Assembly: GCA_036785375.1 (NCBI GenBank)
Contig: JAWMAR010000478.1
Coordinates: forward strand, 930,001-994,000
Direction of reading: 5' to 3'
Source: Leucoraja ocellata
Lineage: Eukaryota
Length of the DNA: 64,000 nucleotides
The notes under the pieces are model-generated. The model was not told the DNA's origin. It did no database searches and was given only the letters and a program-made list of their open reading frames with translations. Shown here piece by piece: positions 489-50,300 of this stretch (its first letter is position 1; each line of letters opens with the position of its first letter). The position numbers and the translations under genes are program-made.

Positions 489-521
489 GAGGGTCAAGTG
501 GATACGATAATGGAGGCTACG
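489..521 (+). CDS. micro-exon 1 GGSSGYDNGGY
   Basis: cacAG|33 nt|GTaaat. Confidence 0.7.
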
Positions 522-3500
522 GTAAATATATTATAGTTTAATACATTCTTTACTTAATCCACAAAGCACTGATAGACAGGTGACAGTCAATGTTAGAATA
601 CCGCAGAAGGCTAAAGGACCAGGGTTAATGTTCCATGTCGACGATCTGCCGGTGGTGACCCCGTCAGTGATAGGAGCAGAAATCCCTCACAGTTGGCTTT
701 ACAAGGAGGGAAAAGGTAGTGAATGAAGCAGGAATCAACACGGCCGATGTTGTCGAATTGAGTTCAGTGCAGTTAAGTTGGATTTAGATGAGTCGTGCAG
801 TTGAGATGAGTTGAGGTTGGTCTAATTGAGTTGAATATAATACAGTTCAGTTCATGCAGTTGAGTTAAGTAGGTTGGTGCAGTTGTGTTTCGTGCAGTCG
901 TCTTGAGTTTAGTGCTGTTGAGTTGATGTTAATGCTGTTGAGTTGAAAGGTTCAAAGGTTATTTATAGGTCACATACACCATAGGTGTAGTGAAATGCTT
1001 GTTGCCAATGCAGCACATAAAGAAAAAAAACAGACATAACAATAATAAAGAGATTTAAACATAAAAAACATCTCCCTACAATGGTTCCCATTATGAGGGA
1101 AGGCACAATATTCAGTCCCCATCCCATTCCCACCCATTGTCGATCCTATTGAGGCTCCACTTCTCCTTTATGGAGGCCCGATGCAGTTCAGTGTAGTTTA
1201 AGGCAGTTGTGTTGATGTTAGTCTTGCATCCTGCCTTCCTTGACTTCCAGGTGTATTTTTAGGTTGTGAAGGCTTGGGCCCGATCCGATAACATGTCATC
1301 ACATACATTGTTCTCCACAGATATTGGTAGACTCCAAGATTCCTTAGCTACAAAATAAACTGTATACGACTGCTTTAATGTTTATTTCTGAATTCGTCAT
1401 CAAATATTACTCACGGCAGTCTGTTTCTCCCACAGGAGGGTCAAGTGGATACGATAACGGAGGCTACGGTAAATATATTATAGTTTAATATATTATACAC
1501 TTAATCCACAAAGCACTGATAGACAGGTGACAGGCAATGTTAGAATACCACAGAACGCTAAAACACCAGGGTTAATGTTCCATGTTGACGATCTGCCGGT
1601 AGTGACCCCGTCAGCGAGAGGAGCAGAATTCCCTCACGGCTGGCTTTACAAGGAGGGAAAAGGCAGTGAATGAAGCGGGAATCCCAGGGATCAACACGGC
1701 TGATGTTGTTGTGATGAGTTGAGCTTGGGTCAGTTGAGTTGAATATAGCTGAGTTTAGTACAGTTGAGTTAAGTCCAATTGAGTTGAGTTGGATTTATGT
1801 AGTTACGTTCATGCAGCTGAGTTGAGCTTAGCGCAGTTGTGTTGAATGCAATTAGGTTGAGTTTAGTGGAGTTGATTTGAGTAAAGAAGTTGAGTTGAGT
1901 TCATGTTGAGTTTTTAGTGCAGTTGAGTAGCCTTGAGATTCGTGCAGTTGAGTTTAATACAGTTGAATTGGTTGCAATTTAGTTGATTTGTTTATTGCAG
2001 TTGAGTGTACTGCAGTTGAGTTGCAATGGTTTAAGTGCAGTTGAGTTGGGTTTAGTGCAGTTGATTTTAGTATGGTGCACTTGAGTCAAGCTCAATGCAG
2101 TTGAGTGTAGTTTAAGGCAGTTGTGTTGAAGCGTTGATGTTAGTTTTGCAACCTGCCTTCCCCGACTTCCAGGTGTATTTTTAGTTTGTGAAGGTTTGGG
2201 CCCGATCCGATAACATGTCATCGCATACATTTTTCTCAACATGTACTGGTAGACTCCAAGATTCCTTAGCTACAAAATAAACTGTATACGACTGCTTTAA
2301 TGTTTATTTCTGAATTCGTCATCAAATATTACTCACGGCAGTCTGTTTCTCCCACAGGAGGGTCAAGTGGATACGATAACGGAGGCTACGGTAAATATAA
2401 AGTGGTTTAGTACATTCTTCACTTAATCCACAAAGCACTGATGGACAGGTGACAGTCAATGTTAGAACACCACAGAGGCTAAAGAACCTGGGTTCATGTT
2501 CCATGTCAACAACCTGCCAGTGGTGACCCTGTCAGTGAGAGGAGCAGAATTCCCCCACGGTTGGCTTTACAAGGAAGGAAAAGGTAGTGAAGGAATCTGG
2601 AATCCCAGGGATCAACAGGACTGTTGTTGTTGTGATGAGTTGAGCTTAGACCAGTTTAGTTGAATTTAGCTGAGTTTAGTACAGTTGAGTTAAGTCCAAT
2701 TGAGTTGAGTTGGATTTATGTAGGTACGTTCATGCAGCTGAGTTGAGCTTAGCCCAGTTGTGTTGAATGCAATTGGGTTGAGGTTGGTTGAGTTTAGTGG
2801 GGTTGATATGAGTAAAGAGTTGAGTTGAGTTCATGTTGAGTTTTTAGTGCAGTTAAGTTGAGTTTAGTGCAGTTGAGTTTAATACAGTTGAATTCGTTGC
2901 AATTTAGTAGATTTGTTTATTGCAGTTGAGTGTACTGCAGTTGAGTTGCAATAGTTTATATGCAGTTGAGTTGGGTTTAGTGCAGTTGATTTTAGTATGG
3001 TGCACTTGAGTCAAGCTCAATGCAGTTGAGTGCAGTTTAAGGCAGTTGTGCTGATGTTAGTTTTGCAAATTGCCTTCCCTGACTTCCAGGTGTATTTTTA
3101 GTTTGTGAAGGTTTGGGCCCGATCCGATAACATGTCATCACATACATTTTTCTCTAAAGGTACTGGGAGACTCCAAGCTTCCTTAACTACAAAATAAACT
3201 GTATACAACTTCTTTAATGTTTATTTCTGAATTTGTCATCAAATATTACTCACGCCAGTCTGTTTCTCCCACAGGAGGGTCAAGTGGATACGATAACGGA
3301 GGCTACGGTAAATATAATGTGGTTTAGTCCATTCTTCACTTAATCCACAAAACAATGATGGACAGGTGACAGTCAATGTTAGAATACCGCAGAAGGCTAA
3401 AGGACCAGGTTAATGTTCCATGTCGACAACATGCCGGTGGTGACCCCGTCAGTGAGAGGAGCAGAATTCCCTCATGGTTGGCTTTACAAGGAGGGAAAAG

Positions 3501-6500
3501 GTAGTGAATAAAGCAGGAATCCCAGAGATCAACATGATGGATGTTGTTGAGTTGAATTCAGTGCAGTTAAGTTGAATTTAGATGATTCGTGCAGTTGAGA
3601 TGAGTTGAGGTTGGTCTAATTGAGTTGAATATAATACAGTTGAGTTCATGCAGCTGAGTTGAGTAGGTTAGTGCAGTTGAGTTTCATGCAGTCGTCTTGA
3701 GTTTCGAGCAATTGAATTGGTTTTTGTGCAGTTGAGCTGGGTTTAGTGCAGTTTAGTTCGGTTTAGTGCAGTTATCGTTGGTTTAGTTGAATGTAGTTAA
3801 GGTGAGTTAAGTTTAGCTTAGTGCAGTTGAGTTTGGTGTAGTTGAGTGCAGTTGTTGAGTTGAGTTTAGTGCAGATGCGTTGAATTAAGTGCAGTCGAAT
3901 TAAGTGCAGTTGAGTTGCTTTTAATGCAGTTGGGTTGAGTTGAATGCAGATAAGTTGTGTTCAGGTAAATGCAGTTGAGTTGAGTGGAGTTAAGTTTTGT
4001 GCAGTTGATTTGTGTTGAGTTTAGTGCAGTTGGGTTTACTCCACTTGAGGTGAGTTTAGTGCTGTTGATGTAGTTGATGTAGTTCAGTTGAATATAATGG
4101 AGTTGAGTTGTTGAGTTTGAGTTGAGTTGAGTGTCATTGAGTGCAATGCAGTTGAGGTGAGTGCGGTTGAGGTGATAGCGGTTAACGTTATACTTGAGTT
4201 CAGTACAGTTGTGTTGAGGTAAATGCAGCTGGGTTGAGATGAGTTGAGTGGAGTGGAGTTTATTGCATTCGCGTTGAGTAGGTACTGTTGAGTTTAATGT
4301 AGATCAGTTGAATTTAATGCATTTGACTTTAGTTTAGTATAGTGAAGCGGAGTTGAGTGCAGTTGTGTTGATGTCAGTGCAGCTTCTCTGAGTTGAATTT
4401 AGTGCAGTTGATTTGGTGCAGTTGAGTTGGGTTAAGAGTAGTTTTGTAAATGTTCGTGTAGTTGAGGAGATGTGTTTAGTGAAGCTGCATTGCGTATGGC
4501 GCATCTGAGTTAAGTGCAGGTGAGTTGAATTGTGTTTACTGCAGTTGAGTTGTGATGAATAGTGTTGAGTTGCGTTGAGATGAGTGCAGTTCAGTTGATT
4601 TTTATTTAGTTTAGTGAATTTCGGTTTAGATTGGTTTAGATATGTTTTCTAACCTGAAGATCGTACCCATCACTCTGAGATAATAATGTTCAATATCTTC
4701 TGTGCTCTTTTCTCTGTTTCTCCAACAGGAGGATCAAGTGGATACAATAAGAACAAAGGCTACGGTAAATATAATGTAGTTTAATATATTCTTCACTTAA
4801 TCCACAAAACAATGATGGACAGGAGACAGTCAATGTTAGAATACCGCAGAAGGCTAAAGGACCAAGGTTAATGTTCCATGTCGACAACCTGCTGGTGGTG
4901 ACCCCGTCAGTGAGAGGAGCAGAAATCCCTCACAGTTGGCTTTACAAGGAGGGAAAAGGTAATGAATGTAGCAGGAATCCCAGGGATCAACACGGCCGAT
5001 GTTGTCGAATTGAGTTCAGTGCAGTTAAGTTGGATTTAGATGAGTTGTGCAGTTGAGATGAGTTGAAGTTGGTCTAATTGAGTTGAATATAATACAGTTG
5101 AGTTCATGCAGTTGAGTTGAGTAGGTTGGTGCAGTTTTAGTTTTGTGCAGTCATCTTGAGTTTCGAGCAGTTGAGTTGGCTTTCCTGCAGTTGAGCAGGG
5201 TTTAGTGCGGTTTAGTGCGGTTTAGTGCGGTTGTCGTTATTTTAATTGAATGTAGTTAAGGTTAGTTAAGTTTAGCTTAGTGCGGTATGGTTGAGTTTGG
5301 TGTAATTGGGTTCCATTGAGTGACGTTGTGGAGTTCAGTCACTGCGGTTGAGTGGAACGCGTTTGTAGAATGCCGTTGAGTGGAACAGAGTTGAGTGCAG
5401 TTGTGATGAGTTTATTGCTGGAGTTCACTGCAGTTGAGTTTAGTGCTGTTGAGTTGATGTTAATGCTGTTGAGTTGAAAGGTTCAAAGGTTATTTATAGG
5501 TCACATACACCATAGGTGTAGTTAAATGCTTGTTGCCAATGCAGCACATAAAAACAAAAATACAGACATAACAATAATAATGAGATTTAAACATAAAAAA
5601 CATCTCCCCACAATGGTTCCCATTATGAGGGAAGGCACAATGTCCAGTCCCCATCCCATGTCCATCCACAATCGGGCCTGTTGAGGCCTCCGCAGTCGCC
5701 TTTATGGAGGCCCGATGCAGTTGAGTGTACTTTAAGGCAGATGTGTTGAAGTGTTGATGTTAGTTTTGCTACCTGCCTTCCCTGACTTCCAGGTGTATTT
5801 TTAGGTTGTGAAGGTTTGGGCCCGATCCGATAACTTGTCATCGCATACATTTTTCTCCACGGGTACTGATAGACTCCAAGATTCCTTGGCTACAAAATAA
5901 ACTGTATACGACTTCTTTAATGTTTATTTCTGAATTCATTATCAAATATTACTCACGGCAGTCTGTTTCTCCCACAGGAGGGTCAAGTGGATACGATAAT
6001 GGAGGCTACGGTAAATATATTATAGTTTAATACATTCTTTACTTAATCCACAAAGCACTGATAGACAGGTGACAGTCAATGTTAGAATACCGCAGAAGGC
6101 TAAAGGACCAGAGTTAATGTTCCATGTCGACGAGCTGCCGGTGGTGACCCCGTCAGTGATAGGAGCAGAAATCCCTCACAGTTGGCTTTACAAGGAGGGA
6201 AAAGGTAGTGAATGAAGCAGGAATCAACACGGCCGATGTTGTCGAATTGAGTTCAGTGCAGTTAAGTTGGATTTAGATGAGTCGTGCAGTTGAGATGAGT
6301 TGAGGTTGGTCTAATTGAGTTGAATATAATACAACTGAGTACATGCAGTTGAGTTAAGTAGGTTGGTGCAGTTGTGTTTCGTGCAGTCGTCTTGAGTTTA
6401 GTGCTGTTGAGTTGATGTTAATGCTGTTGAATTGAAAGGTTCAAAGGTTATTTATAGGTCACATACACCATAGGTGTAGTGAAATGCTTGTTGCCAATGC

Positions 6501-9500
6501 AGCACATAAAGAAAAAAAACAGACATAACAATTATAAAGAGATTTAAACATAAAAAAACATCTCCCTACAATGGTTCCCATTATGAGGGAAGGCACAATA
6601 TTCAGTCCCCATCCCATTCCCACCCATTGTCGATCCTATTGAGGCTCCACTTCTCCTTTATGGAGGCCCGATGCAGTTCAGTGTAGTTTAAGGCAGTTGT
6701 GTTGATGTTAGTCTTGCATCCTGCCTTCCTTGACTTCCAGGTGTATTTTTAGTTTGTGAAGGCTTGGGCCCGATCCGATAACATGTCATCACATACATTG
6801 TTCTCCACAGATATTGGTAGACTCCAAGATTCCTTAGCTACAAAATAAACTGTATACGACTGCTTTAATGTTTATTTCTGAATTCGTCATCAAATATTAC
6901 TCACGGCAGTCTGTTTCTCCCACAGGAGGGTCAAGTGGATACGATAACGGAGGCTACGGTAAATATATTATAGTTTAATATATTATACACTTAATCCACA
7001 AAGCACTGATAGACAGGTGACAGGCAATGTTAGAATACCACAGAACGCTAAAACACCAGGGTTAATGTTCCATGTTGACGATCTGCCGGTAGTGACCCCG
7101 TCAGCGAGAGGAGCAGAATTCCCTCACGGCTGGCTTTACAAGGAGGGAAAAGGCAGTGAATGAAGCGGGAATCCCAGGGATCAACACGGCTGATGTTGTT
7201 GTGATGAGTTGAGCTTAGGTCAGTTGAGTTGAATATAGCTGAGTTTAGTACAGTTGAGTTAAGTCCAATTGAGTTGAGTTGGATTTATGTAGTTACGTTC
7301 ATGCAGCTGAGTTGAGCTTAGCGCAGTTGTGTTGAATGCAATTGGGTTGAGTTTAGTGGAGTTGATTTGAGTAAAGAAGTTGAGTTGAGTTCATGTTGAG
7401 TTTTTAGTGCAGTTGAGTAGCCTTGAGATTCGTGCAGTTGAGTTTAATACAGTTGAATTGGTTGCAATTTAGTTGATTTATTTATTGAAGTTGAGTGTAC
7501 TGCAGTTAAGTTGCAATGGTTTAAGTGCAGTTGAGTTGGGTTTAGTGCAGTTGATTTTAGTATGGTGCACTTGAGTCAAGCTCAATGCAGTTGAGTGTAG
7601 TTTAAGGCAGTTGTGTTGAAGCGTTGATGTTAGTTTTGCAACCTGCCTTCCCCGACTTCCAGGTGTATTTTTAGTTTGTGAAGGTTTGGGCCCGATCCGA
7701 TAACTTGTCATCGCATACATTTTTCTCCACGGGTACTGATAGACTCCAAGATTCCTTGGCTACAAAATAAACTGTATACGACTTCTTTAATGTTTATTTC
7801 TGAATTCATTATCAAATATTACTCACGGCAGTCTGTTTCTCCCACAGGAGGGTCAAGTGGATACGATAATGGAGGCTACGGTAAATATATTATAGTTTAA
7901 TACATTCTTTACTTAATCCACAAAGCACTGATAGACAGGTGACAGTCAATGTTAGAATACCGCAGAAGGCTAAAGGACCAGAGTTAATGTTCCATGTCGA
8001 CGATCTGCCGGTGGTGACCCCGTCTGTGATAGGAGCAGAAATCCCTCACAGTTGGCTTTACAAGGAGGGAAAAGGTAGTGAATGAAGCAGGAATCAACAC
8101 GGCCGATGTTGTCGAATTGAGTTCAGTGCAGTTAAGTTGGATTTAGATGAGTCGTGCAGTTGAGATGAGTTGAGGTTGGTCTAATTGAGTTGAATATAAT
8201 ACAACTGAGTACATGCAGTTGAGTTAAGTAGGTTGGTGCAGTTGTGTTTCGTGCAGTCGTCTTGAGTTTAGTGCTGTTGAGTTGATGTTAATGCTGTTGA
8301 ATTGAAAGGTTCAAAGGTTATTTATAGGTCACATACACCATAGGTGTAGTGAAATGCTTGTTGCCAATGCAGCACATAAAGAAAAAAAACAGACATAACA
8401 ATAATAAAGAGATTTAAACATAAAAAACATCTCCCTACAATGGTTCCCATTATGAGGGAAGGCACAATATTCAGTCCCCATCCCATTCCCACCCATTGTC
8501 GATCCTATTGAGGCTCCACTTCTCCTTTATGGAGGCCCGATGCAGTTCAGTGTAGTTTAAGGCAGTTGTGTTGATGTTAGTCTTGCATCCTGCCTTCCTT
8601 GACTTCCAGGTGTATTTTTAGGTTGTGAAGGCTTGGGCCCGATCCGATAACATGTCATCACATACATTGTTCTCCACAGATATTGGTAGACTCCAAGATT
8701 CCTTAGCTACAAAATAAACTGTATACGACTGCTTTAATGTTTATTTCTGAATTCGTCATCAAATATTACTCACGGCAGTCTGTTTCTCCCACAGGAGGGT
8801 CAAGTGGATACGATAACGGAGGCTACGGTAAATATATTATAGTTTAATATATTATACACTTAATCCACAAAGCACTGATAGACAGGTGACAGGCAATGTT
8901 AGAATACCACAGAACGCTAAAACACCAGGGTTAATGTTCCATGTTGACGATCTGCCGGTAGTGACCCCGTCAGCGAGAGGAGCAGAATTCCCTCACGGCT
9001 GGCTTTACAAGGAGGGAAAAGGCAGTGAATGAAGCGGGAATCCCAGGGATCAACACGGCTGATGTTGTTGTGATGAGTTGAGCTTGGGTCAGTTGAGTTG
9101 AATATAGCTGAGTTTAGTACAGTTGAGTTAAGTCCAATTGAGTTGAGTTGGATTTATGTAGTTACGTTCATGCAGCTGAGTTGAGCTTAGCGCAGTTGTG
9201 TTGAATGCAATTAGGTTGAGTTTAGTGGAGTTGATTTGAGTAAAGAAGTTGAGTTGAGTTCATGTTGAGTTTTTAGTGCAGTTGAGTAGCCGTGAGATTC
9301 GTGCAGTTGAGTTTAATACAGTTGAATTGGTTGCAATTTAGTTGATTTGTTTATTGCAGTTGAGTGTACTGCAGTTGAGTTGCAATGGTTTAAGTGCAGT
9401 TGAGTTGGGTTTAGTGCAGTTGATTTTAGTATGGTGCACTTGAGTCAAGCTCAATGCAGTTGAGTGTAGTTTAAGGCAGTTGTGTTGAAGCGTTGATGTT

Positions 9501-12500
9501 AGTTTTGCAACCTGCCTTCCCCGACTTCCAGGTGTATTTTTAGTTTGTGAAGGTTTGGGCCCGATCCGATAACATGTCATCGCATACATTTTTCTCAACA
9601 TGTACTGGTAGACTCCAAGATTCCTTAGCTACAAAATAAACTGTATACGACTGCTTTAATGTTTATTTCTGAATTCGTCATCAAATATTACTCACGGCAG
9701 TCTGTTTCTCCCACAGGAGGGTCAAGTGGATACGATAACGGAGGCTACGGTAAATATAAAGTGGTTTAGTACATTCTTCACTTAATCCACAAAGCACTGA
9801 TGGACAGGTGACAGTCAATGTTAGAACACCACAGAGGCTAAAGAACCTGGGTTCATGTTCCATGTCAACAACCTGCCAGTGGTGACCCTGTCAGTGAGAG
9901 GAGCAGAATTCCCCCACGGTTGGCTTTACAAGGAAGGAAAAGGTAGTGAAGGAATCTGGAATCCCAGGGATCAACAGGACTGATGTTGTTGTGATGAGTT
10001 GAGCTTAGACCAGTTTAGTTGAATTTAGCTGAGTTTAGTACAGTTGAGTTAAGTCCAATTGAGTTGAGTTGGATTTATGTTGGTACGTTCATGCAGCTGA
10101 GTTGAGCTTAGCCCAGTTGTGTTGAATGCAATTGGGTTGAGGTTGGTTGAGTTTAGTGGGGTTGATATGAGTAAAGAGTTGAGTTGAGTTCATGTTGAGT
10201 TTTTAGTGCAGTTAAGTTGAGTTTAGTGCAGTTGAGTTTAATACAGTTGAATTCGTTGCAATTTAGTAGATTTGTTTATTGCAGTTGAGTGTACTGTAGT
10301 TGAGTTGCAATGGTTTATATGCAGTTGAGTTGGGTTTAGTGCAGTTGATTTTAGTATGGTGCACTTGAGTCAAGCTCAATGCAGTTGAGTGCAGTTTAAG
10401 GCAGTTGTGCTGATGTTAGTTTTGCAAATTGCCTTCCCTGACTTCCAGGTGTATTTTTAGTTTGTGAAGGTTTGGGCCCGATCCGATAACATGTCATCAC
10501 ATACATTTTTCTCTAAAGGTACTGGGAGACTCCAAGCTTCCTTAACTACAAAATAAACTGTATACAACTTCTTTAATGTTTATTTCTGAATTTGTCATCA
10601 AATATTACTCACGCCAGTCTGTTTCTCCCACAGGAGGGTCAAGTGGATACGATAACGGAGGCTACGGTAAATATAATGTGGTTTAGTCCATTCTTCACTT
10701 AATCCACAAAACAATGATGGACAGGTGACAGTCAATGTTAGAATACCGCAGAAGGCTAAAGGACCAGGTTAATGTTCCATGTCGACAACATGCCGGTGGT
10801 GACCCCGTCAGTGAGAGGAGCAGAATTCCCTCATGGTTGGCTTTACAAGGAGGGAAAAGGTAGTGAATAAAGCAGGAATCCCAGAGATCAACATGATGGA
10901 TGTTGTTGAGTTGAATTCAGTGCAGTTAAGTTGAATTTAGATGATTCGTGCAGTTGAGATGAGTTGAGGTTGGTCTAATTGAGTTGAATATAATACAGTT
11001 GAGTTCATGCAGCTGAGTTGAGTAGGTTAGTGCAGTTGAGTTTCATGCAGTCGTCTTGAGTTTCGAGCAATTGAATTGGTTTTTGTGCAGTTGAGCTGGG
11101 TTTAGTGCAGTTTAGTTCGGTTTAGTGCAGTTATCGTTGGTTTAGTTGAATGTAGTTAAGGTGAGTTAAGTTTAGCTTAGTGCAGTTGAGTTTGGTGTAG
11201 TTGAGTGCAGTTGTTGAGTTGAGTTTAGTGCAGATGCGTTGAATTAAGTGCAGTCGAATTAAGTGCAGTTGAGTTGCTTTTAATGCAGTTGGGTTGAGTT
11301 GAATGCAGATAAGTTGTGTTCAGGTAAATGCAGTTGAGTTGAGTGGAGTTAAGTTTTGTGCAGTTGATTTGTGTTGAGTTTAGTGCAGTTGGGTTTACTC
11401 CACTTGAGGTGAGTTTAGTGCTGTTGATGTAGTTGATGTAGTTCAGTTGAATATAATGGAGTTGAGTTGTTGAGTTTGAGTTGAGTTGAGTGTCATTGAG
11501 TGCAATGCAGTTGAGGTGAGTGCGGTTGAGGTGATAGCGGTTAACGTTATACTTGAGTTCAGTACAGTTGTGTTGAGGTAAATGCAGCTGGGTTGAGATG
11601 AGTTGAGTGGAGTGGAGTTTATTGCATTCGCGTTGAGTAGGTACTGTTGAGTTTAATGTAGATCAGTTGAATTTAATGCATTTGACTTTAGTTTAGTATA
11701 GTGAAGCGGAGTTGAGTGCAGTTGTGTTGATGTCAGTGCAGCTTCTCTGAGTTGAATTTAGTGCAGTTGATTTGGTGCAGTTGAGTTGGGTTAAGAGTAG
11801 TTTTGTAAATGTTCGTGTAGTTGAGGAGATGTGTTTAGTGAAGCTGCATTGCGTATGGCGCATCTGAGTTAAGTGCAGGTGAGTTGAATTGTGTTTACTG
11901 CAGTTGAGTTGTGATGAATAGTGTTGAGTTGCGTTGAGATGAGTGCAGTTCAGTTGATTTTTATTTAGTTTAGTGAATTTCGGTTTAGATTGGTTTAGAT
12001 ATGTTTTCTAACCTGAAGATCGTACCCATCACTCTGAGATAATAATGTTCAATATCTTCTGTGCTCTTTTCTCTGTTTCTCCAACAGGAGGATCAAGTGG
12101 ATACAATAAGAACAAAGGCTACGGTAAATATAATGTAGTTTAATATATTCTTCACTTAATCCACAAAACAATGATGGACAGGAGACAGTCAATGTTAGAA
12201 TACCGCAGAAGGCTAAAGGACCAAGGTTAATGTTCCATGTCGACAACCTGCTGGTGGTGACCCCGTCAGTGAGAGGAGCAGAAATCCCTCACAGTTGGCT
12301 TTACAAGGAGGGAAAAGGTAATGAATGTAGCAGGAATCCCAGGGATCAACACGGCCGATGTTGTCGAATTGAGTTCAGTGCAGTTAAGTTGGATTTAGAT
12401 GAGTTGTGCAGTTGAGATGAGTTGAAGTTGGTCTAATTGAGTTGAATATAATACAGTTGAGTTCATGCAGTTGAGTTGAGTAGGTTGGTGCAGTTTTAGT

Positions 12501-18500: not shown

Positions 18501-20338
18501 GGCCTGTTGACGCCTCCGCAGTCACCTTTATGGAGGCCCGATGCAGTTGAGTGTAGTTTAAGGCAGATGTGTTGAAGTGTTGATGTTACCTGCTACCTGT
18601 TTTGCTACCTGCCTTCCCTGACTTCCAGGTGTATTTTTAAGTTGTGCAGGTTTGGGCCCAATGCGATAACATGTCATCGCTTACATTTTTCTCCACAGGT
18701 ACTGGTAGACTCCAAGATTCCTTAGCTACAAAATAAATTGTATACGACTTCTTTAATGTTTATTTCTGAATTTGTTATCAATTATTACTCACGGCAGTCT
18801 GTGTCTCCCACGGGAGGGTCAAGTGGATACGATAATGGAGGCTACGGTAAATATAATGTGGTTTAGTACATTTTTCACTTAATCCACAAAGCACTGATGG
18901 ACAGGTGACAGTCAATGTTAGAATACCGCAGAAGGCTAAAGGACCTGGGTTAATGTTCCATGTCGACAACCTGCCAGTGGTGACCCCGTCAATGAGAGGA
19001 GCAGAATTCCCTCATGGTTGGCTTTACAAGGAGGGAAAAGGTAGTGAATGAAGCGGGAATCCCAGGGATCAACACGGCTGATGTTGTTGTGATGAGTTGA
19101 GCTTAGGCCAGTTGAATTGAATTTAGCTGAGTTTAGTACAGTTGAGTTAAGCCCAATTGAGTTGAGTTGGATTTATGTAGTTACGTTCATGCAGCTGAGT
19201 TGAGCTTAGCGCAGTTGTGTTGAATGCAATTGGGTTGAGGTTGGTTGAGTTTAGTGGGGTTGATTTGAGTAAAGAGAGTTGAGTTCATGTTGAGTTTTTA
19301 GTGCAGTTAAGTTGAGTTTAGTGCAGTTGAGTAGCCTTGGGATTCGTGCAGTTGAGTTTAATACAGTTGAATTAGTTGCAATTTAGTTGATTTGTTTATT
19401 GCAGTTGAGTGTACTGCAGTTCAGTTGGGTTTAGTGCAGTTGATTTTAGTATGGTGCACTTGAGTCAAGATCAATGCAGTTGAATGCAGTTTAAGGCAGT
19501 TGTGTTGATGTTAGTTTTGCAACTTGCCTTCCCTGACTTCCAGGTGTATTTTTAGTTTGTGAAGGTTTGGGCCCGATCCGATAACATGTCATCGCATACA
19601 TTTTTCTCTAAAGGTACTTGGTAGACTCCAAGATTCCTTAGCTACAAAATAAACTGTATACGACTTCTTTAATGTTTATTTTCTGAATTTGTCATCAAAT
19701 ATTACTCACGCCAGTCTGTTTCTCCCACAGGAGGGTCAAGTGGATACGATAACGGAGGCTACGGTAAATATATTATTGTTTAATATATTCTTCACTTAAT
19801 CCACAAAACAATGATGGACAGGTGACAGTCAATGTTAGAATACCGCAGAAGGCTAAAGGACCAGGGTTAATGTTCCATGTCGACGACCTGCCGGTGGTGA
19901 CCCCGTAAGTGAGAGGAGCAGAATTCCCTCGCGGTTGGCTTTACAAGGAGGGAAAAGATAGTGAATGAAGCGGGAATTTAGTTGAATGTCGTTAAGGTGA
20001 GAGGTTTAGCTTAGTGCAGTTGAGTTGAGTTCGGTGTAATTGGGTTGCGTTGAATGCAGTTTTGGAGTTCAGTCACTGCGATGGAATTGGAATGCGGTTG
20101 TGTAATGTGATTGAGTGGAACGTAGTTAAATGTTGAGTTGTCCGGTAGGCGGCGCGACTCTCGTCAACAGCAGCCTCTGCAGCCCGTCCGCATTTTTATT
20201 ATTTTTGTCTATGTTTTTATGTAGTTTTTGTTATTTTTTGTTGGGGTGTGTGTGTGGGGGGGGGGGGGGGGGGGGGGGGGGGGAGGGGGGGGGGGGGAGG
20301 GGAGGGGGGGGGGGGGGGGGGGAGGGGAGGGGGGGGGG

Positions 20339-20392
<54 letters not shown>

Positions 20393-38300: not shown

Positions 38301-41300
38301 CTCCAAGATTCCTTAGCTACAAAATAAACTGTATGCGACTGATTTAATACTTATTTCTGAATTTGTCACCAAATATTACTCACGCCAGTCTGTTTCTCCA
38401 ACAGGAGGATCAAGTGGATACGATAATAACAGAGGCTACGGTAAATATAATGTAGTTTAATATATTCTTCACTTAATCCACCAAACAATGATGGACAGGT
38501 GACAGTCAATGTTAGAATACCGCAGAAGGCTAAAGGACCAAGGTTAATGTTCCATGTCGACAACATGCCGGTGGTGACCCCGTCAGTGAGAGGAGCAGAT
38601 TTCCCTCACAGTTGGCTTTACAAGGAGGGAAAAGGTAATGAATGAAGCAGGAATCCCAGGGATCAACACGGCCGATGTTGTTGAATTGAGTTCAGTGCAG
38701 TTAAGTTGGATTTAGATGAGTCGTGCAGTTGAGATGAGTTGAAGTTGGTCTAATTGAGTTGAATATAATACAGTTGAGTTCATGCAGTTGAGTTGGTTTT
38801 CCTGCAGTTGAGCTGGGTTTAGTGCAGTTTAGTGCGGTTTAGTGCGGTTGTCGTTAGTTTAATTGAATGTAGTTAAGGTTAGTTAAGTTTAGCTTATTGC
38901 GGCATGGTTGAGTTTGGTGTAATTGGGTTCCATTGAGTGAAGTTGTGGAGTTCAGTCACTGCGGTTGAGTGGAACGCGTTTGTAGAATGCCGTTGAGTGG
39001 AACGGAGTTGAGTGCAGTTGTGATGAGTTTATTGCTGGAGTTCACTGCAGTTGAGTTTAGTGCTGTTGAGTTGAAAGGTTCAAAGGTTATTTATAGGTCA
39101 CATACACCATAGGTGTAGTTAAATGCTTGTTGCCAATGCAGCACATAAAAACAAAATTACAGACATAACAATAATAACGAGATTTAAACATAAAAAACAT
39201 CTCCCCACAATGGTTCCCATTATGAGGGAAGGCACAATGTCCAGTCCCCATCCCATGTCCATCCACAATCGGGCCTGTTGAGGCCTCCGCAGTCGCCATT
39301 ATGGAGGCCCGATGCAGTTAAGTGTAGTTTAAGGCAGTTGTGTTGAAGTGTTGATGTTAGTTTTACTACCTGCCTTCCCTGACTTCCAGGTGTATTTTTA
39401 GGTTGTGAAGGTTTGGGCCCGATCCGATAACTTGTCATCGTATACATTTTTCTCCACGGGTACTGATAGACTCCAAGATTCCTTAGCTACAAAATAAACT
39501 GTATACGACTTCTTTAATGTTTATTTCTGAATTCATTATCAAATATTACTCACGGCAGTCTGTTTCCCCCACAGGAGGGTCAAGTGGATACGATAATGGA
39601 GGCTACGGTAAATATATTATAGTTTAATACATTCTTCACTTAATCCACAAAGCACTGATAGACAGGTGACAGTCAATGTTAGAATACCGCAGAAGGCTAA
39701 AGGACCAGGGTTAATGTTCCATGTCGACAACTTGCCGGTGGTGACCCCGTCAGTGAGAGGAGCAGAATTCCCTCACGGTTGGCTTTACAAGGAGGGAAAA
39801 GGTAGTGAATGAAGCAGGAATCACAGGGATCAACACGGCTGATGTTGTTGTGATGAGTTGAGCTTAGGTCAGTTGAGTTGAATATAGCTGAGTTTAGTGC
39901 AGTTGAGTTAAGTCCAATTGAGTTGAGTTGGATTTATGTGGTTTCATTCATGCAGCTGAGTTGAGCTTAGCGCAGTTGTGTTGAATGCAATTGGGTTGAG
40001 GTTGGTTGAGTTTAGTGGAGTTGATTTGAGTAAAGAGTTGAGTTGAGTTCATGTTGAGTTTTTAGTTCAGTTGAGTTGAGTTGAGTGCAGTTAAGTTGAG
40101 TTTAGTGCAGTTGAGTAGCCTTGGGATTCGTGCAGTTGAGTTTAATACAGTTGAATTAGTTGCAATTTAGTAGATTTGTTTATTGAAGTTGAGTGTACTG
40201 CAGTTGAGTTGCAATGGTTTATATGCAGTTGAGTTGGGTTTAGTGCAGTTGATTTTAGTATGGTGCACTTGAGTCAAGCTCAATGCAGTTGAGTGCAGTT
40301 TAAGGCAGTTGTGCTGATGTTAGTTTTACAACCTGACTTCCAGGTGTATTTTTAGTTTGTGAAGGTTTGGGCCCGATCTGATAACATGTCATCGCATACA
40401 TTTTTCTCTAAAGGTACTGGTAGACTCCAAGATTCCTTAGCTACAAAATAAACTGTATACGACTTCTTTAATGTTTATTTCTGAATTTGTCATCAAATAT
40501 TAGTCACGCCAGTCTGTTTCTCCCACAGGAGGGTCAAGTGGATACGATAACGGAGGCTACGGTAAATATATTATTGTTTAATATATTCTTCACTTAATCC
40601 ACAAAACAATGATGGACAGGTGACAGTCAATGTTAGAATACCGCAGAAGGCTAAAGGACCAGGGTTAATGTTCCATGTTGACGACCTGCCGGTGGTGACC
40701 CCGTCAGTGAGAGGAGCAGAATTCCCTCACGGTTGGCTTTACAAGGAGGGAAAAGATAGTGAATGAAGCGGGAATCCCAGGGATCAACATGATGGATGTT
40801 GTTGAATTGAGTTCAGTGCAGTTGTTGAATTTAGATGATTCGTGCAGTTGAGATGAGTTGAGGTTGGTCTAATTAAGTTCAATATAATACAGTTGAGTTC
40901 ATGCAGCTGAGTTGAGTATAATTATGAGGGAAGGTACAATGTCCAGTCCCCATCCCATGTCCACCCACAATCGGGCCCGTTGAGGCCTCCGCAGTCGCCT
41001 TTATAGAGGCCCGATGCAGTTGAGTGTAGTTTAAGGCAGTTGTGTTGGAATGTTGATGTTAGATTTTCTACCTGCCTTCAGGTGTATTTTTAGGTTGTGA
41101 AGGTTTGGGCCCGATCCGATAACTTGACATCGCATACATTTTTCTCCACGGGTACTGGTAGACTCCAAGATTCCTTACCTACAAAATAAACTGTATACGC
41201 CTTCTTTAATGTTTATTTCTGAATTCGTCATCAAATATTACTCACGCCAGTCTGTTTCTCCCACAGGAGGGTCAAGTGGATACGATAACGGAGGCTACGG

Positions 41301-44300
41301 TAAATATATTATAGTTTAATATATTATTCGCTTAATCCACAAAGCACTGATAGACGGGTGACAGTCAATGTTAGAATACCGCAGAAGGCTAAAGGACCAA
41401 GGTTAATGTTCCATGTCGACGATCTGCCGGTGGTGACCCCGTCAGTGAGAGGAGCAGAATTCCCTCACGGTTGGCTTTACAAGGAGGGAAAAGGTAGTGA
41501 ATGAAGCGGGAATCCCAGGGATCAACATGGCTGATGTTGTTGTGATGAGTTGAGCTTAGGCCAGTTGAGTTGAATTTAGCTGAGTTTAGTGCAGTTGAGT
41601 TAAGTGCAATTGAGTTGAGTTGGATTTATGTAGTTACGTTCATGCAGCTGAGTTGAGCTTAGCGCAGTTGTGTTGAATGCAATTGGGTTGAGGTTGGTTG
41701 AGTTTAGTGGAGTTGATTTGAGTAAAGAGTTGAGTTGAGTTCATGTTGAGTTTTTAGTGCAGTTGAGTTGAGTTGAGTGCAGTTGAGAAGCCTTGGGATT
41801 CCTGCAGTTGAATTAGTTGCAATTTAGTAGATTTGTTTATTGCAGTTGAGTGTACTGTAGTTGAGTTGCAATGGTTTATATGCAGTTGAGTTGGGTTTAG
41901 TGCAGTTGATTTTAGTATGGTGCACTTGAGTCAAGCTCAATGCAGTTGAGTGCAGTTGAGATGAGTTGAAGTTGGTCTAATTGAGTTGAATATAATACAG
42001 TTGAGTTCATGCAGTTGAGTTGAGTAGGTTGGTGCAGTTTTAGTTTCATGCAGTCGTCTTGAGTTTCGAGCAGTTGAGTTGGTTTTCCTGCAGTTGAGCT
42101 GGGTTTAGTGCAGTTTAGTTCGGTTTAGTGCGGTTGTCGTTAGTTTAATTGAATGTAGTTAAGGTTAGTTAAGTTTAGCTTGAGTTTGGTGTAATTGGGT
42201 TGCGTTCAGTGCAGTTGTGGAGTTCAGTCACTGCGGTTGAGTGGAACGCAGTTGTAGAATGCCGTTGAGTGGAACGGAGTTAAGTGCAGTTGTGATGAGT
42301 TTATTGCTGGAGTTCACTGCAGTTGAGATTAGTGCTGTTGAGTTGATGTTAATGCTGTTGAGTTGAAAGGATCAAAGGTTATTTATAGGTCACTTACACC
42401 ATAGGTGTAGTGAAATGCTTGTTGCCAATGCAGCACATTAAGAAAAAAATAGACATAAATAGACATAGGGGGAGGAGACGGCGGGGGCTGGCAGGGCTGG
42501 GGGAGTTCGGTGTTTGTGCCCCCGGGATGTGGACTCCCCAGGCGGAGTGTGGGATGCTGTTCCTCCAGTTTCCGGTGTTGCTCGCTCTGGCGGTGGAGGG
42601 GACCCGGGACGGAGAGGTCGGGTTGGGAGTGGGAGGGGGAGTTGGGGTGCTGAGCCGTCGGGAGCTCAGATGGGTTGTTGCGGGCCGGGAGGAGGTGTTC
42701 GGCGAGGCCTGGGGAGGGGGTGGTGCGGGAGGGAGGGGAGGGGTTGGCGGGGGAGTTTCGGAGGGAGCGGTCTTTGCGGGGGGCAGACATGGGGGGGATG
42801 GGAGGATGTGGCGAGTGGTGGGAGCCCGTTGGAGGTGGCGGAGGTGGCGGAGGATTATGTGTTGTATTTTCCAGCTGGTGGGTGAAAGGTGAGGACTAGG
42901 GTGACTCTGCCCTTGTTGTGGGTGCGGCGATGGGGAGAGAGAGCAGTGTTACGGGGTATGGATGAGACCCTGGTGCGAGCCTCATCTATGGTGGCGGAGG
43001 GGAATCCCCGTTCCTATTATCTAAATGGTGGCCGATTGGGAAAGGGGGAGATGCAGCGAGACCTGGGTGTCATGGTACACCAGTCATTGAAGGTAGGCAT
43101 GCAGGTGCAGCAGGCAGTAAAGAAAGCGAATGGTATGTTAGCTTTCATTGCAAAAGGATTTGAGTATAGGAGCAGGGAGGTTCTACTGCAGTTGTACAGG
43201 GTCTTGGTGAGACCACACCTGGAGTATTGCGTACAGTTTTGGTCTCCAAATCTGAGGAAGGACATTATTGCCATTGAGGGAGTGCAGAGAAGGTTCACCA
43301 GACTGATTCCTGGGATGTCAGGACTGCCTTATGAAGAAAGACTGGATAGACTTGGTTTATACTCTCTAGAATTTAGGAGATTGAGAGGGGATCTTATAGA
43401 AACTTACAAAATTCTTAAGGGGTTGTACAGGCTAGATGTAGGAAGATTGTTCCCGATGTTGGGGAAGTCCAGGACAAGGGGTCACAGCTTAAGGATAAGG
43501 GGGAAATCCTTTAAAACCGAGATGAGAAGAACTTTTTTCACACAGAGTGGTGAATCTCTGGAACTCTCTGCCACAGAGGGTAGTTGAGGCCAGTTCATTG
43601 GCTATATTTAAGAGGGAGTTAGATGTGGCCCTTGTGGCTAAGGGGATCAGGGGGTATGGAGAAAAGACAGGTACGGGATACTGAGTTGGATGATCAGCCA
43701 TGATCATATTGAATGGCGGTGCAGGCTCGAAGGGCCGAATGGCCTACTCCTGCACCTAATTTCTATGTTTCTATGGTTCTATAACAATAATAAAGAGATT
43801 TAAACATAAAAAACATCCCCCCACAAAGGTTCCCATTGTGAGGGAAGGCACAATATCCAGTCCCCATCCCATGTGCACCCATAGTCGGGCCTATTGAGGC
43901 TTCCACATTCGCCTTTATGGTTGCCCAATGCAATTGAGTGTAGTTTAAGGCAGTTGTGTTGAAGTGTTGATGTTAGTCTTGCAACCTGCCTTCCTTGACT
44001 TCTAGGTGTATTTTTAGGTTGTGTAGGTTTGGGCCCGATCCGATAACTTGTCATCGCATACATTTTTCTCCACAGGTATTGGTAGACTCCAAGATTCCTT
44101 AGCTACAAAATTGTATATGACTGCTTTAATGTTTATTTCTGAGTTCGTTATCAAATATTACTTACGCTAGTCTGTTTTTTTGTCCCACAGGTGGGCCAAG
44201 TGGATATGATAACGGAGGCTACGGTAAATATATTATAGTTTAATATATTATTCACTTAATCCACAAAACAATGATGGACAGGTGACAGTCAATATTAGAA

Positions 44301-47300
44301 TACCGCAGAAGGCTAAAGGACCAGGGTTAATGTTCCATATCGACGACCTGCCGGTGGTGACCCCGTCAATGAGAGGAGCAGAATTCCCTCACGGTTGGCT
44401 TTACAAGGAGGGAAGGAAGGAAAAGGTAGTGAATGAAGCGGGAATCCCAGGGATCAACACGGCTGATGTTGTTGTGATGAGTTGAGCTTAGGTCAGTTGA
44501 ATTGAATATAGTTGAGTTTAGTGCAGTTGAGTTAAGTCCATTTGAGTTGAGTTGTATTTATCTAGTTACGTTCACGCAGCTGAGTTGAGCTTAGCGCAGT
44601 TGTGTTGAATGCAATTGGGTTCAGTTTAGTAGAGTTGAGTTGAGTTCATGTTGAGTTTTTAGTGCAGTTGAGTTTAGTGCAGTTGAGTAGCCTTGAGATT
44701 CGTGCAGTTGAGTTTAGTACAGTTGAATTAGTTGCAATTTAGTAGATTTGTTTATTGCAGTTGAGTGTACTGCAGTTGAGTTGCAATGGTTTAAGTGCAG
44801 TTGAGTTGGGTTTAGTGCAGTTGATTTTAGTATGGTGCACTTGAGTCAAGCTCAATGCAGTTGAGTGTAGTTTAAGGCAGTTGTGTTGAAGTGTTGATGT
44901 TAGTTTTGCAACCTGCCTTCCCTGACTTCCAGGTGTATTTTTAGCATGTAAACGTTTGGGCCCGATCCGATAACTTGTCATCGCATACATTTTTCTCCAC
45001 GGGTACTGGTAGACTCCAAGATTCGTTAGCTACAAAATAAACTGTATACGACTGCTTTATGTTTATTTCTGAATTTGTTATCAAATATTACTCACGCCAG
45101 TCTGTGTCTCCCACAGGAGGGTCAAGTGGATACGATAACGGAGGCTACGGTAAATATATTATTGTTTAATATTCTTCACTTAATCCACAAAACAATGATG
45201 GACAGGTGACAGTCAATGTTAGAATACCGCAGAAGGCTAAAGGACCAGGGTTAATGTTCCATGTCGACAACATGCCGGTGGTGACCCCGTAAGTGAGAGG
45301 AGCTGAATTCCCTCACAGTGGCTTTACAAGGAGGGAAAAGGTAGTGAATGAAGCAGGAATCCCCGAGATCAACACGATGGATGTTGTTGAATTGAGTTCA
45401 GTGCAGTTAAGTTGAATTTAGATGATTCGTGCAGTTGAGATGAGTTGAGGTTGGTCTAATTGAGTTGAATATAATACAGTTGAGTTCATGCAGTTGAGTT
45501 GAGTAGTTTAGTGCAGTTGAGTTACGTGCAGTCACCTTGAGTTTCGAGCAGATGAGTTGGTTTCCGTGCAGTTGAGCTGGGTTTACTTCAGTTTAGTGCA
45601 GTTGTTGTTAGTTTAATTGAATGTAGTTAAGGTGAGTTAACTTTAGCTTAGTGCAGTTGAGTTGAGTTTGGTGTAATTGGGTTGCGTTGAGTGCAGTTGG
45701 GGAGTTCAGTCACTGCGGTTGAGTGGAACGCGGTTGTGTAATGTGATTGAGTGGAATGGAGTTGATTGCAGTTGTGATGAGTTTATTGCTGGAGTTCACT
45801 GCAGTTGAGTTTAGTGCTGTTGAGTTGATGTTAATGCTGTTGAGTTGAAATGTTCAAAGGTTATTTATTGGTCACATACACCATAGGTGTAGTGTAATGC
45901 TTGTTGCCAATGCAGCACATTAAAAAGAAAATACAGACATAACAATAATAAAGAGATTTAAAAATAAAAAAACTGCTCCCCACAATGGTTCCCATTACAA
46001 GGGAAGGCACAATGTCCAGTCCCCATCCCATGTCCACCCATAGTCGGGCCTATTGAGCCCTCCGCAGTCGTCTTTATGGAGGCACGATGTTCCAGGCCTT
46101 TCTCGCCACATGATGGTGCTCCGTCGTCGGGGGAATCCTCTCAGCGGCATGGGAAACCTGGAACGGCCCCTTCCTCCCCGGAGACCGCAGCTTCCGAAGC
46201 TGGCAGGGCGCGCTGGATGGAGCTCCACCATTGGCGATCTTGTAGAGATATCCCAGGCTCCCGATGTTAAAATCAGCGCCGCTGCCCGCGGCTGACCGCT
46301 CCACAGACCTGCAGCTCCACGATGCTTCATTGCAGTTGAGTTGAAGTTAATGCTGTTGAGCTGATGATAATGACGATGAGCTGATGATAATGACGTTGAG
46401 CTGATTATAATGACGTTGAGATGATGATAATGACGTTGAGATGATGATAATGACGTTGAGATGATGATAATGGTGTTGAGTTGATGTTACTGCTGTTGAG
46501 TTGAGTTTACTGCTGTTGAGTTGAGTTTAGTACAGTTGGGCTGAGTTCAGTGCAGTTGAGTTCAGTGTCGTCGAGCGCAGTAGAGTAGAATGTAGATCAG
46601 TTCGGTTGTGTTTAATGATGTGCAGTCGAGTTTAGTGCAGCGGAGTTGTATGCAGTTGTGTTGAGTTTAATGCTGTTGAAGAGTTGAGTTCAGTGCATTT
46701 GAGTTTAGTGAAGGGGATTGTAGTGGATCTGAGTTGTGTTTGGTGCAGTTGTTATGAATTTCGTTCAATTAAGTATGGTGCACTTGGATTGAGCGGAGTT
46801 GAGTAGTTTTTTTTTAATTTAGCGCAGTTGAGGAGTTGGGTTGAGGGCTGTTAAGCTGTGTTGAGCTGAGTTGAGTTGTGTTTCGTGCGGTTGAGATGAA
46901 TGCAGTGGAGTCGGGTGCAGCGCAGTTCAGTTGAATTGAGAATAATGCAGTTGATTTCAGTGAAGTTGAGTTGCAAGTAGTTGAGTTGAATACAGCTGTG
47001 TTGCAGTAAATGCAGTTATGTTCAGTGGTGTTAAATATTGGAGGAATTGTGTGTTGTGTTGAGGTTAATGCAGTTGAGGAGTTGAGTTTAGTGCAGATGC
47101 GTTGAGTTTAGTGCAGTTGAACTGAGTGCAGTTGAGTTGCGTTTAATGCAGTTGGGTTGAGTTGAATGCAGATAAGTTGTGTTCAGGTAAATGCATTTGA
47201 GTGGAGTTGAGTATTGTGCAGTTGATTTGTGTTCAGTTTAGTGCAGTTGGGTTTATTCCACTTGAGCTGAGTTTAGTGCTGTTGATATAGTTCAGTTGAA

Positions 47301-50300
47301 TATAATGTAGTTGAGTTTGTGTTGGGTTTGTGTTGGGTTTGTGTTGGGTTTGTGTTGGGTTTGTGTTGGGTTTGTGTTGGGTTTGTGTTGGGTTTGTGTT
47401 GGGTTTGTGTTGGGTTTGTGTTGGGTTTGTGTTGGGTTGAGTGCGGTTGAGGTGAGAGTGGTTGACGTTATACTTGAGTTCAGTACAGTTGTGTTGAGGT
47501 AAATGCAGCTGGGTTGAGATGAGTTGAGTGGAGTGGAGTTTGTTGCATTTGAGTTGAGTAGGTACTGTTGAGTTTAATGTAGTTTGTTGAATATAATGCA
47601 TTTTACTTTAGTTTAGTATAGTGAAGCGGAGTTGAGTGCAGTTGTGTTGATGTCAGTGCAGCTTCTCTGAGTTGAGTTTAGTGCAGTTGGTTTAGTGCAG
47701 TTGAGTTGGGTTAAGTGTAGTTTTGTGGATGTTCGTGCAGTTGAGGAGATGAGTTTAGAGCTGCTGCGTTGCGTATGGTGCATCTGACTTGAGTTAAGTG
47801 CAGGTGAGTTGATTTGTGTTTACTGCAGTTGAGTTGTGGTGAATAGTGTTGAGTTGCGTTGAGATGAGTGCAGTTGAGTTGATTTTAATTCAGTTTAGTG
47901 AATTTCGGTTTAGATTGGTTTAGATCAGTTTTCTAACCTGTAGATCGTACCCATCACTCTGGGATAATAGTGGTCAACATCTTCTGTGCTCTTTCTAAAA
48001 CCACCATATGCTTCTTGGTTTGGGGTGAACATAACTGAACAAAATACACCCTAACCTAATTGCTGTAAGCTTGCATCCTGCCTTCCCTGACTTGAGTGTA
48101 TTTTTAGGTTGTGAAGGTTTGGGCACGATCCGATAACTTGTCATCGCATACATTTTTCTCCCCAGGTATTGGTAGTCTCTAAGATTCCTTAGCTGCAAAA
48201 TAAACTGTATACGACTTCTTTAATGTTTATTTCTGAATTCGTCATCAAATATTACTCACGCCAGTCTGTTTCTCCCACAGGAGGGTCAAGTGGATGTGAT
48301 AACGAAGGCTACGGTAAATATATTATAGTTTAATATATTGTTCATTTAATCCACAAAGCACTGATGGACAGGTGACAGTCAATGTTAGAATACCGCAGAA
48401 GGCTAAAGGACCAGGGTTAATGTTCCATGTCGACGACCTGCCGGTGGTGACCCCGTCAGTGAGAGGAGCAGAATTCCCTCACAGTGGCTTTACAAGGCGG
48501 GAAAAGGTAGTGAATGAAGCGGGAATCCCTGAGATCAACATGATGGATGTTGTTGAATTGAGTTCAGTGCAGTTATGTTGAATTTAGATGAGTCGTGCTG
48601 TTGAGATGAGTTGAGGTTGGTCTAATTGAGTTGAATATAATACAGTTGAGTTCATGCAGTGGAGTTGAGTAGGTTAGTGCAGTTGTGTTTCGTGCAGTCG
48701 TCTTGAGTTTCGAGCAGTTGAATTGGTTTTTGTGCAGTTGAGCTGGGTTTAGTGCAGTTTAGTTCGGTTTAGCGCAGTTATCGTTAGTTTAGTTGAATGT
48801 AGTTAAGGTGAGTTAAGTTTAGCTTAGTGCAGTTGAGTTGAGTTTGGTGTAATTGGGTTGCGTTGAGTGCAGTTGGGGAGTTCAGTCACTGCGGTTGAGT
48901 GGAATTCTGGTTGTGTAATGTGATTGAGTGGAACGGAGTTGAGTGCAGTTGTGATGAATTTATTGCTGGAGTTCACTGCAGTTGAGTTTAGTGCTGTTGA
49001 GTTGATGTTAATGCTTTTGAGTTGAAAGGTTCAAAGGTTATTTATTGGTCACATACACCGTAGGTGTAGTGAAATGCTTGTTGCCAATGCAGCACATAAA
49101 AAAAAATAAAAAAAAATACAGACATAACAATAATAAAGAGTCTTAAACATAAATGGTGCATCTGAGTTGGGTTGTGTACAGGTGAGTAAATTTGTGTTTA
49201 CTGCAGATGAGCTGTGATGAATTGTGTTGAGTTGCGTTGAGATGAGTGCAGTTGAGTTGATTTTTATTTAGTTTAGTTAATTTCAGTTTAGATTGGTTTA
49301 GATATGTTTTCTAACCTGTAGATCGTACCCATCACTCTGGGATAATACTGGTCAACATCTTCTGCGCTCTTTCCAAAACCACCATATGCTTCTTGGTTTG
49401 GGGTGAACATAACTGCACAAAATACATCCTAACCTAATTGCTGTAAGGTTGCACCCTGCCCTCCCCGAATTTGGGGTGTATTTTTATGTTGTGATGGTTT
49501 GGGCCCGATCCAATAACTTGTAATCACATACCTTTTTATCCACAGGTATTGGTAGACTCCAAGGTTCCTTAGCTACAAAATAAACGGGATAAGACAGAGT
49601 TAATGTTTATTTCTGAATTCGTCATCAAATATTACTCACGCCAGTCTCTTTCTCCCACAGGAGGGTCAAGTGGATACGATAAAGGAGGCTACGGTAAATA
49701 TATGTGGTTTAGTACATTCTTCACTTAATCCACAAAGCACTGATGGACAGGTGACAGTCAATGTTAGAATGCCGCAGAAGGCTAAAGGACCAGGGTTAAT
49801 GTTCCATGTCGATGACCTGCCAGTGGTGACCCCGTCAGTGAGAGGAGCAGAATTCCCTCACGGTTGGCTTTACAAGGAGGGAAAAGGTAGTGAATGAAGC
49901 AGGAATCCCAGGGATCAACACGGCTGATGTTGTTGTGATGAGTTGAGCTTAGGTCAGTTGAGTTGAATTTAGCTGAGTTTAGTACAGTTGAGTTAAATTC
50001 AATTGAGTTGAGTTGGTTTTATGTAGTTACGTTCATGCAGCTGAGTTGAGCTTAGCACAGTTGTGTTCAATGCAATTGGGTTGAGGATGGTTGAGTTTAG
50101 TACAGTTGAGTTCATGTTGAGTTTTTTGTGCAGTTGTGTTGAATGAAAATGGTTGAGGTTATTGCAGTTGAGTTTTTTGTGCAGTTGAGTTTTGTGCATT
50201 TGATTTGAGTTTAGTGCAGTTGAGTTGCCTTGAGATTCGTGCAGTTTAATACAGTTGAATTAGTTGCAATTTAGTTGATTGTTTATTGCAGTTGAGTGTA

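Follow-up and report, generated by a model that had tools for sequence, protein, structure and literature searches.

A tandem array of 45 micro-exon units in a skate genome is a probable Gly/Tyr-rich polymer gene built by exon duplication

Dozens of symmetric phase-1 exons encoding Gly-rich sequence typify extracellular polymers such as elastin. Skates lay eggs, and their capsule proteins have a Gly/Ser/Pro/Tyr signature and undergo catechol tanning; non-collagen capsule proteins rich in Gly, Ser and Tyr were reportedly described in Raja erinacea by Koob and Cox. Our literature search on skate and shark capsule proteins confirmed neither point, as it returned no sequence paper and nothing giving the signature or the tanning. 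The capsule consists mainly of collagen, which the baffle zone secretes (PMC10230700), lamprin is an elastin-like matrix protein of lamprey cartilage (PMC3142159), and actinodins make up the Tyr-rich portion of elastoidin that is not collagen (PMC6497306); the part of PMC9999432 that was covered has nothing on elasmobranch capsules. The micro-exon genes (MEGs) of schistosomes are described as consisting mostly of very small symmetric exons, as apparently restricted to flatworms, as all encoding signal peptides and as varying under immune pressure (PMC4350168). Here we describe a tandem array of 45 exon-plus-intron units in a 64,000-nucleotide stretch of the Leucoraja ocellata assembly GCA_036785375.1 (contig JAWMAR010000478.1, positions 930,001 to 994,000, forward strand; hereafter the window). 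Judged from its sequence, the array probably consists of working exons, 43 of them intact, and a Gly/Tyr-rich polymer built by exon duplication, for which we found no database relative, is its probable product. Our preferred reading, that this product is a secreted, Tyr-crosslinked Gly/Ser/Tyr matrix polymer, we consider an even call.

A splice-pattern scan, together with a BLAST comparison of the window with one of its units, located the 45 copies between 489 and 63054 on the + strand, with no motif match on the - strand. Each has a core of about 430 bp centred on a segment of 33 nt (34 copies) or 36 nt (10 copies; copy 43 is truncated), which is preceded by a pyrimidine tract plus CAG and followed by a GT donor. 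The acceptor AG is found in 43/45 copies and the donor GT in 45/45, and the complete arrangement of AG, 33 or 36 nt and GT is retained in 43/45. Unit-like sequence makes up 92% of the window. The first-pass annotation had ended the array at 49693, after copy 39; this end point has to be moved, as six further copies start at 51026, 54339, 55751, 58851 (broken), 60384 and 63019. Mean core identity among copies 1-39 is 92%, and identity to these copies falls to 82% in copies 40 and 42, 83% in copy 43, 84% in copy 44 and 75% in copy 45; copy 41, at 91%, is unlike its diverged neighbours. The divergence of copies 40 and 42-45 suggests that the repeat domain ends not far beyond them on the 3' side. 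Neither a poly(A) signal nor a strong acceptor was found in 63055-64000. The array and its copies are as follows.

234..63263, + strand: tandem array of 45 exon-plus-intron units (core of about 430 bp plus GAGTT-type satellite spacer)
460..488, + strand: acceptor region of copy 1 (branch-point-like heptamer, pyrimidine tract and CAG), a layout common to most copies
489..521, + strand: copy 1, a 33-nt symmetric micro-exon with the majority-type peptide
522..527, + strand: donor GTAAAT of copy 1, a hexamer found in 43/45 copies
Starts of intact 33-nt copies, + strand: 1436, 2358, 3275, 5978, 6926, 7848, 8795, 9717, 10634, 13337, 14285
Starts of intact 33-nt copies, continued, + strand: 15221, 16138, 19731, 21514, 22444, 24521, 25458, 28141, 30221, 31158, 33813
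Starts of intact 33-nt copies, last, + strand: 34742, 36699, 39575, 40529, 41267, 44191, 45117, 48281, 49661, 54339
4729..4764, + strand: copy 5, the first 36-nt variant, bearing Lys/Arg
Starts of the other 36-nt copies, + strand: 12088, 17864, 27192, 32870, 38405, 51026, 55751, 60384, 63019
18814..18846, + strand: copy 18, with GG in place of the acceptor AG; skipping is predicted and would be frame-neutral
48281..48313, + strand: copy 38, with the sole Cys (Tyr to Cys)
58851..58882, + strand: copy 43, acceptor deleted and donor position +3 changed, a predicted dead exon
60384..60419, + strand: copy 44, a diverged intact 36-nt exon
63019..63054, + strand: copy 45, the last exon observed and, among the intact ones, the most diverged (75% core identity)

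Because the introns are nearly as alike as the exons, an exon-shaped piece could merely ride along in the satellite. We built a tree from 42 of the 45 cores, omitting copies 5 and 12, which are without the upstream half, and the broken copy 43, and used it to count the independent changes in each column; expected rates came from intronic columns, split by base and CpG context. Gene conversion makes a single tree an approximation, and the resulting constraint probabilities are therefore rough. The donor (-1 to +6) underwent one change against 10.8 expected from the flanking-intron rates, a quietness reached in the introns by 2 of the 348 overlapping windows of 7 columns. At the acceptor (-3 to +1) we counted one change against 6.1 expected, and in the branch-point region 6 against 14.2; with copy 43 included, these counts would rise by about two events. 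As an internal neutral control, the unit carries a relic splice-like site, which showed 9 changes against 5.2 expected and has kept both AG and GT in only 23/43 copies.

360..385, + strand: relic site of acceptor/6-nt/donor-like layout, shown for copy 1; one precedes each exon by about 110 nt

The splice signals are thus conserved against their own introns while the upstream look-alike decays, which is why the copies are probably working exons; the exon status that the first-pass annotation had given to the repeats stands. The relic itself resembles the main acceptor and may descend from a 6-nt micro-exon that the ancestral unit once had. A second working 6-nt micro-exon at this place was ruled out, given the loss of AG or GT in many copies and a length of 7 nt in one of them.

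The reading frame is also undisturbed. The sole indel type in intact exons adds 3 nt, whereas the interior indel types of the flanks are non-triplet in 27/27 cases (six alignment-end artefacts were removed by hand). About 2.2 exon frameshifts were expected (2.8 with the artefacts) and none is present; stops, of which about 1.9 were expected, are absent in phase 1 from 43/43 intact exons, a two-base codon change in copy 44 reading Ser. The two broken copies, 18 and 43, were damaged at their splice sites without acquiring a stop or a frameshift, so that two exons have been lost with the frame intact. This is the pattern of constraint on splicing and frame, loose on residues, that is expected for a low-complexity polymer.

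A number of results weigh against our preferred reading, and most of them speak for a non-coding or recently dead array, be it spliced exons of a long non-coding RNA, a homogenised pseudogene macrosatellite or a silent satellite with an old exon inside. In the window we found no 5' exon, start, stop, signal peptide or 3' terminal exon. Across the whole exon, changes run at 1.30 per column (43 steps, 33 columns) against 1.40 in the introns; non-synonymous changes number 24 against 32.5 expected, a weak amino-acid constraint that is not significant (P ~0.08), and omega differs significantly from neutral in neither of the two stop-free phases (P 0.15 in the frame comparison). Stop and frameshift events amount to only about four expected, so their absence is modest evidence.

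Sequencing reads gave no sign of the spliced mRNA. Runs X1, X7, X11 and X14 (tissues coded) were compared with one unit, 1230-1710; X7 (oligo-dT) was read to about 5% and X11 to about 6%, and X1 consists of contigs that are RNA by our guess. No exon-exon joint and no exon-only pile-up was seen in the four runs, a negative limited by the unproven sensitivity of the read mapping to exon pieces of 33-35 nt; it fits the presence of a gland-restricted gene as well as its absence. They gave 5, 5, 1 and 0 records, respectively, the zero of X14 being no test. The 5 pieces of X1 are all intronic. In all 5 reads of X7, at 90-99% identity, the orientation agrees with that of a + strand transcript in the usual stranded library, a weak point in favour of our reading from few and unspliced reads; one of them spans the exon unspliced, and the single read of X11 has the opposite orientation. 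A run search on 1-10000 listed no RNA run that contains this sequence, and three runs of one study (kind unstated) contain 0.43-0.47 of the words.

Protein searches were likewise blank, although weakly so because the queries were single-exon unspliced frames in which only 11-12 residues each are exon. With the phase-1 query, 13 candidates were returned from a collection that includes the little-skate NCBI proteins, none at E<=10, and there were 0 matches among 1.84 billion representatives. The phase-0 query gave no candidate in the collection with little-skate proteins, and no protein shared three 5-mers with it. The lack of a match in that collection fits an unannotated gene, weak as the queries were. 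Nothing exceeded the Pfam cut-off in six frames, and a literature search on the repeat motif gave nothing relevant by title. Against a non-coding or dead array stand the constrained splice signals and the lengths of 33 or 36 nt in 43/43 intact copies. Moreover, old long interspersed nuclear element (LINE) insertions, 79% identical to others, sit between intact diverged exons, so the exons have stayed intact for long. Rfam gave no match at the gathering threshold in the window, and hence no support for a host array of small nucleolar RNAs or microRNAs. Overall, we regard a non-coding or dead array as unlikely, though worth keeping in view.

If the exons are coding, they are very likely read in phase 1, judging by how they have changed. 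Phase 2 was rejected, with stops in 41/43 exons. Phase 0 is as free of stops as phase 1 (43/43 intact exons) and nothing in the window fixes the phase, which tells against our reading and in favour of a Thr/Glu/Asp-rich repeat of the EGQVDTITEAT type, that is, a mucin-like or acidic secreted protein without Tyr chemistry. The substitutions, in contrast, sit better in phase 1: omega is 0.69 there versus 1.33 in phase 0, and the recurrent CpG changes, silent in phase 1, would have turned Thr into Met 11 times in phase 0. Identical peptides are encoded by 27/43 exons in phase 1 versus 19/43 in phase 0, with 13 versus 18 distinct peptides, and the blank 5-mer comparison adds a weak argument. A phase-0 product is accordingly improbable in our estimate. 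The first-pass annotation had assumed its frame; the Gly/Ser/Tyr composition that it derived holds for the frame that the substitutions favour, with the proviso that phase 0 is also open.

In phase 1 the majority exon reads GGSSGYDNGGY, in keeping with the earlier count of 5 Gly, 2 Ser, 2 Tyr, 1 Asp and 1 Asn per repeat, and the 43 intact exons (1449 nt) would encode 483 aa, of which 41.6% are Gly (201), 19.5% Ser (94) and 16.4% Tyr (79), followed by 48 Asn, 35 Asp, 10 Lys, 5 Arg, 3 Glu, 2 each of Ile, Thr and Val, 1 Pro, 1 Cys and no Ala. There is no triplet period, so the claim that a Gly-X-Y collagen period is lacking was borne out; the claimed lack of Pro and aliphatic residues is true of the consensus and fails for the 483 aa (1 Pro, 2 Ile, 2 Val). 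The single Cys assigned to exon 38 does lie in copy 38, which is the 37th intact exon because copy 18 has lost its acceptor. Tyr recurs every 5-6 residues. The net charge is -23, with most modules acidic; several of the ten 36-nt variants carry Lys/Arg, and the basic ones are copies 5, 12, 17, 24 and 28. Within single exons no N-glycosylation sequon was found (0/43). The Ser-Ser-Gly codons at exon positions 7-12 underwent no steps, their silent positions included, which suggests an exonic splicing enhancer.

On the reading that we prefer, the array would form the central, repeat-coding part of a single large skate gene, in which each unit of 0.7-4.6 kb adds a Gly/Ser/Tyr module through a symmetric 33- or 36-nt exon spliced into one mRNA in phase 1. 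The units have been amplified in tandem as wholes; growth and shrinkage would proceed by unequal crossing-over of exon plus intron, and copies that lose a splice site would be skipped without a shift of frame. The product would be a disordered chain of 483 aa or more, mostly of acidic modules among which basic modules recur at intervals of a few units. Its most likely role is that of a secreted protein of a structure or matrix, which would condense through aromatic contacts of Tyr and through charge, and then be fixed by Tyr oxidation (DOPA/quinone or dityrosine); with one Cys and little Lys, Tyr is the main crosslinkable group. Composition is what points to the crosslinking or phase separation that the first-pass annotation had proposed. 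Candidate tissues are the egg capsule, the fin ceratotrichia, the skin and other gland secretions. That it is an egg-capsule protein specifically, an idea drawn from composition and taxon, is a tentative suggestion. Equally tentative is the more detailed proposal that the gene encodes a Tyr-rich protein, other than collagen, on which tanning acts in the skate egg capsule, that the gene is still changing in length by duplication of exon-intron units, and that its acidic and basic modules are patterned for coacervation ahead of quinone crosslinking.

The same composition (Gly, Ser, Tyr, Asn and Asp) and Tyr spacing would also suit a low-complexity domain inside the cell, of the FUS/hnRNP or the keratinocyte-envelope kind, with its evenly spaced Tyr driving phase separation, and both the termini lying outside the window and the lack of N-glycosylation sequons leave room for it. 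However, FET/hnRNP prion-like domains are short and conserved among vertebrates and are not known to arise from more than 40 amplifying identical exons, and the search of 1.84 billion representatives, weak as the query was, gave no match. No RRM, RGG or zinc-finger exon was found in the non-repeat, LINE-like parts of the window, and the termini lie beyond it. We consider an intracellular role rather improbable. A secreted bottle-brush proteoglycan or gel core (egg jelly, ampullary gel or cartilage), with glycosaminoglycan chains on Ser-Gly or with Tyr sulfated instead of crosslinked, is very unlikely: its 43 Ser-Gly dipeptides in 43 intact exons (42 exons carry one; 39 are SGY), the adjoining Tyr-Asp and the Ser-Ser-Gly codons as the least variable part of the exon would fit, but xylosyltransferase sites usually need acidic clusters, there is one Asp per module here, and the invariance of silent positions fits a splicing enhancer equally well.

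The introns between intact exons measure 705-4597 nt (median 1173) and are filled with strand-biased GAGTT-type satellite and LINE fragments. A degenerate GAGTT/GTGCA pentamer satellite runs throughout them, with 1287 matches on the + strand versus 52 on the - strand; being AG-rich and poor in pyrimidine tracts, it may limit cryptic acceptors. Recent growth is visible as a higher-order duplication.

234-8095 versus 7585-15467, + strand: recent higher-order duplication of 7.9 kb, 98.7% identical

Young CR1-type LINE 3' fragments, 96-97% alike and on the + strand, occupy separate intron sites (35527-36342, ~42950-43771 and 51728-52545). Among 120 of 1977 matches listed for the LINE frame 35520-36155, the best named relatives are from Leucoraja erinacea (93% and 90%), followed by Mobula (86%), Hypanus (77%), Callorhinchus (70%) and Chiloscyllium (67%), which very probably places the array in a skate on sequence grounds. 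Older LINE fragments of other subfamilies lie between the diverged 3' exons at 57920-58559 (- strand) and 61132-61842 (+ strand), 79% and ~70% identical to the young LINE. An 850-bp GC-rich element is present three times (20145-20943, 23100-23950 and 28797-29649; 94-96% alike), apparently copied with the units, and a 136-nt run of G in the first of these, at 20256-20391, may be an assembly or sequencing artefact. A 110-codon frame at 63465-63794 (+ strand) had no Pfam match and resembles the end of a Tx1/L1-type LINE ORF2. The single-copy non-unit inserts 46090-46325 and 63264-63400 had no second match within the window.

An array of this kind would represent a vertebrate gene class apparently missed by protein databases, an exon-per-repeat polymer hidden in satellite-like DNA; a capsule gene built in this way would be invisible to annotation because dozens of its 33-nt exons sit inside a macrosatellite. 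Should it encode a capsule or fin-fibre protein, it would supply sequence for a tough Tyr-tanned biomaterial otherwise familiar from amino-acid analyses. The 11-residue module offers a simple unit for tests of condensation and crosslinking, and the locus could serve as a marker in comparisons between skates, which lay eggs, and live-bearing rays. In one and the same gene, the array also documents how exons arise, are skipped and die.

Compared with known systems, the array shares with egg-capsule proteins the skate taxon (through its LINE relatives) and, conditional on phase 1, the high Gly/Ser/Tyr content. Two differences from bulk capsule protein stand out: the product is not collagen and is without Gly-X-Y, and its 483 aa contain one Pro against the Pro-rich capsule signature, although termini outside the window could differ. 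Actinodins are likewise Tyr-rich and accompany collagen in a fibre of fishes, and as these are the Tyr-rich part of elastoidin, fin fibres (ceratotrichia) are another candidate tissue; the Cys/Pro repeat of actinodins is absent here. Lamprin is likewise a Gly/Tyr repeat polymer with GY-rich repeats in a fish skeletal matrix, but it is small and Leu-rich, whereas the array repeat is polar, acidic and without Leu. FUS, TAF15 and hnRNP prion-like domains resemble the product in their Gly/Ser/Tyr/Asn composition and regularly spaced Tyr, and differ from it in that the array product has no Gln and is a strict tandem exon repeat, with no RRM or RGG seen in the window. With tropoelastin and zebrafish calymmin the array has in common many small symmetric exons coding for Gly-rich extracellular repeats; it is without their hydrophobic Pro/Val/Ala repeats (no Ala, 1 Pro, 2 Val) and their KA/KP crosslink domains, and in contrast to them its introns are about 92% identical, so its amplification is recent. 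The schistosome MEGs, too, have a coding region of very small symmetric exons in which skipping keeps the frame, but a skate is no platyhelminth, and the present case is one of a vertebrate whose exon-intron units, nearly identical to one another, multiply in tandem. The array gene therefore falls outside the MEGs by taxon and outside the elastin type by composition.

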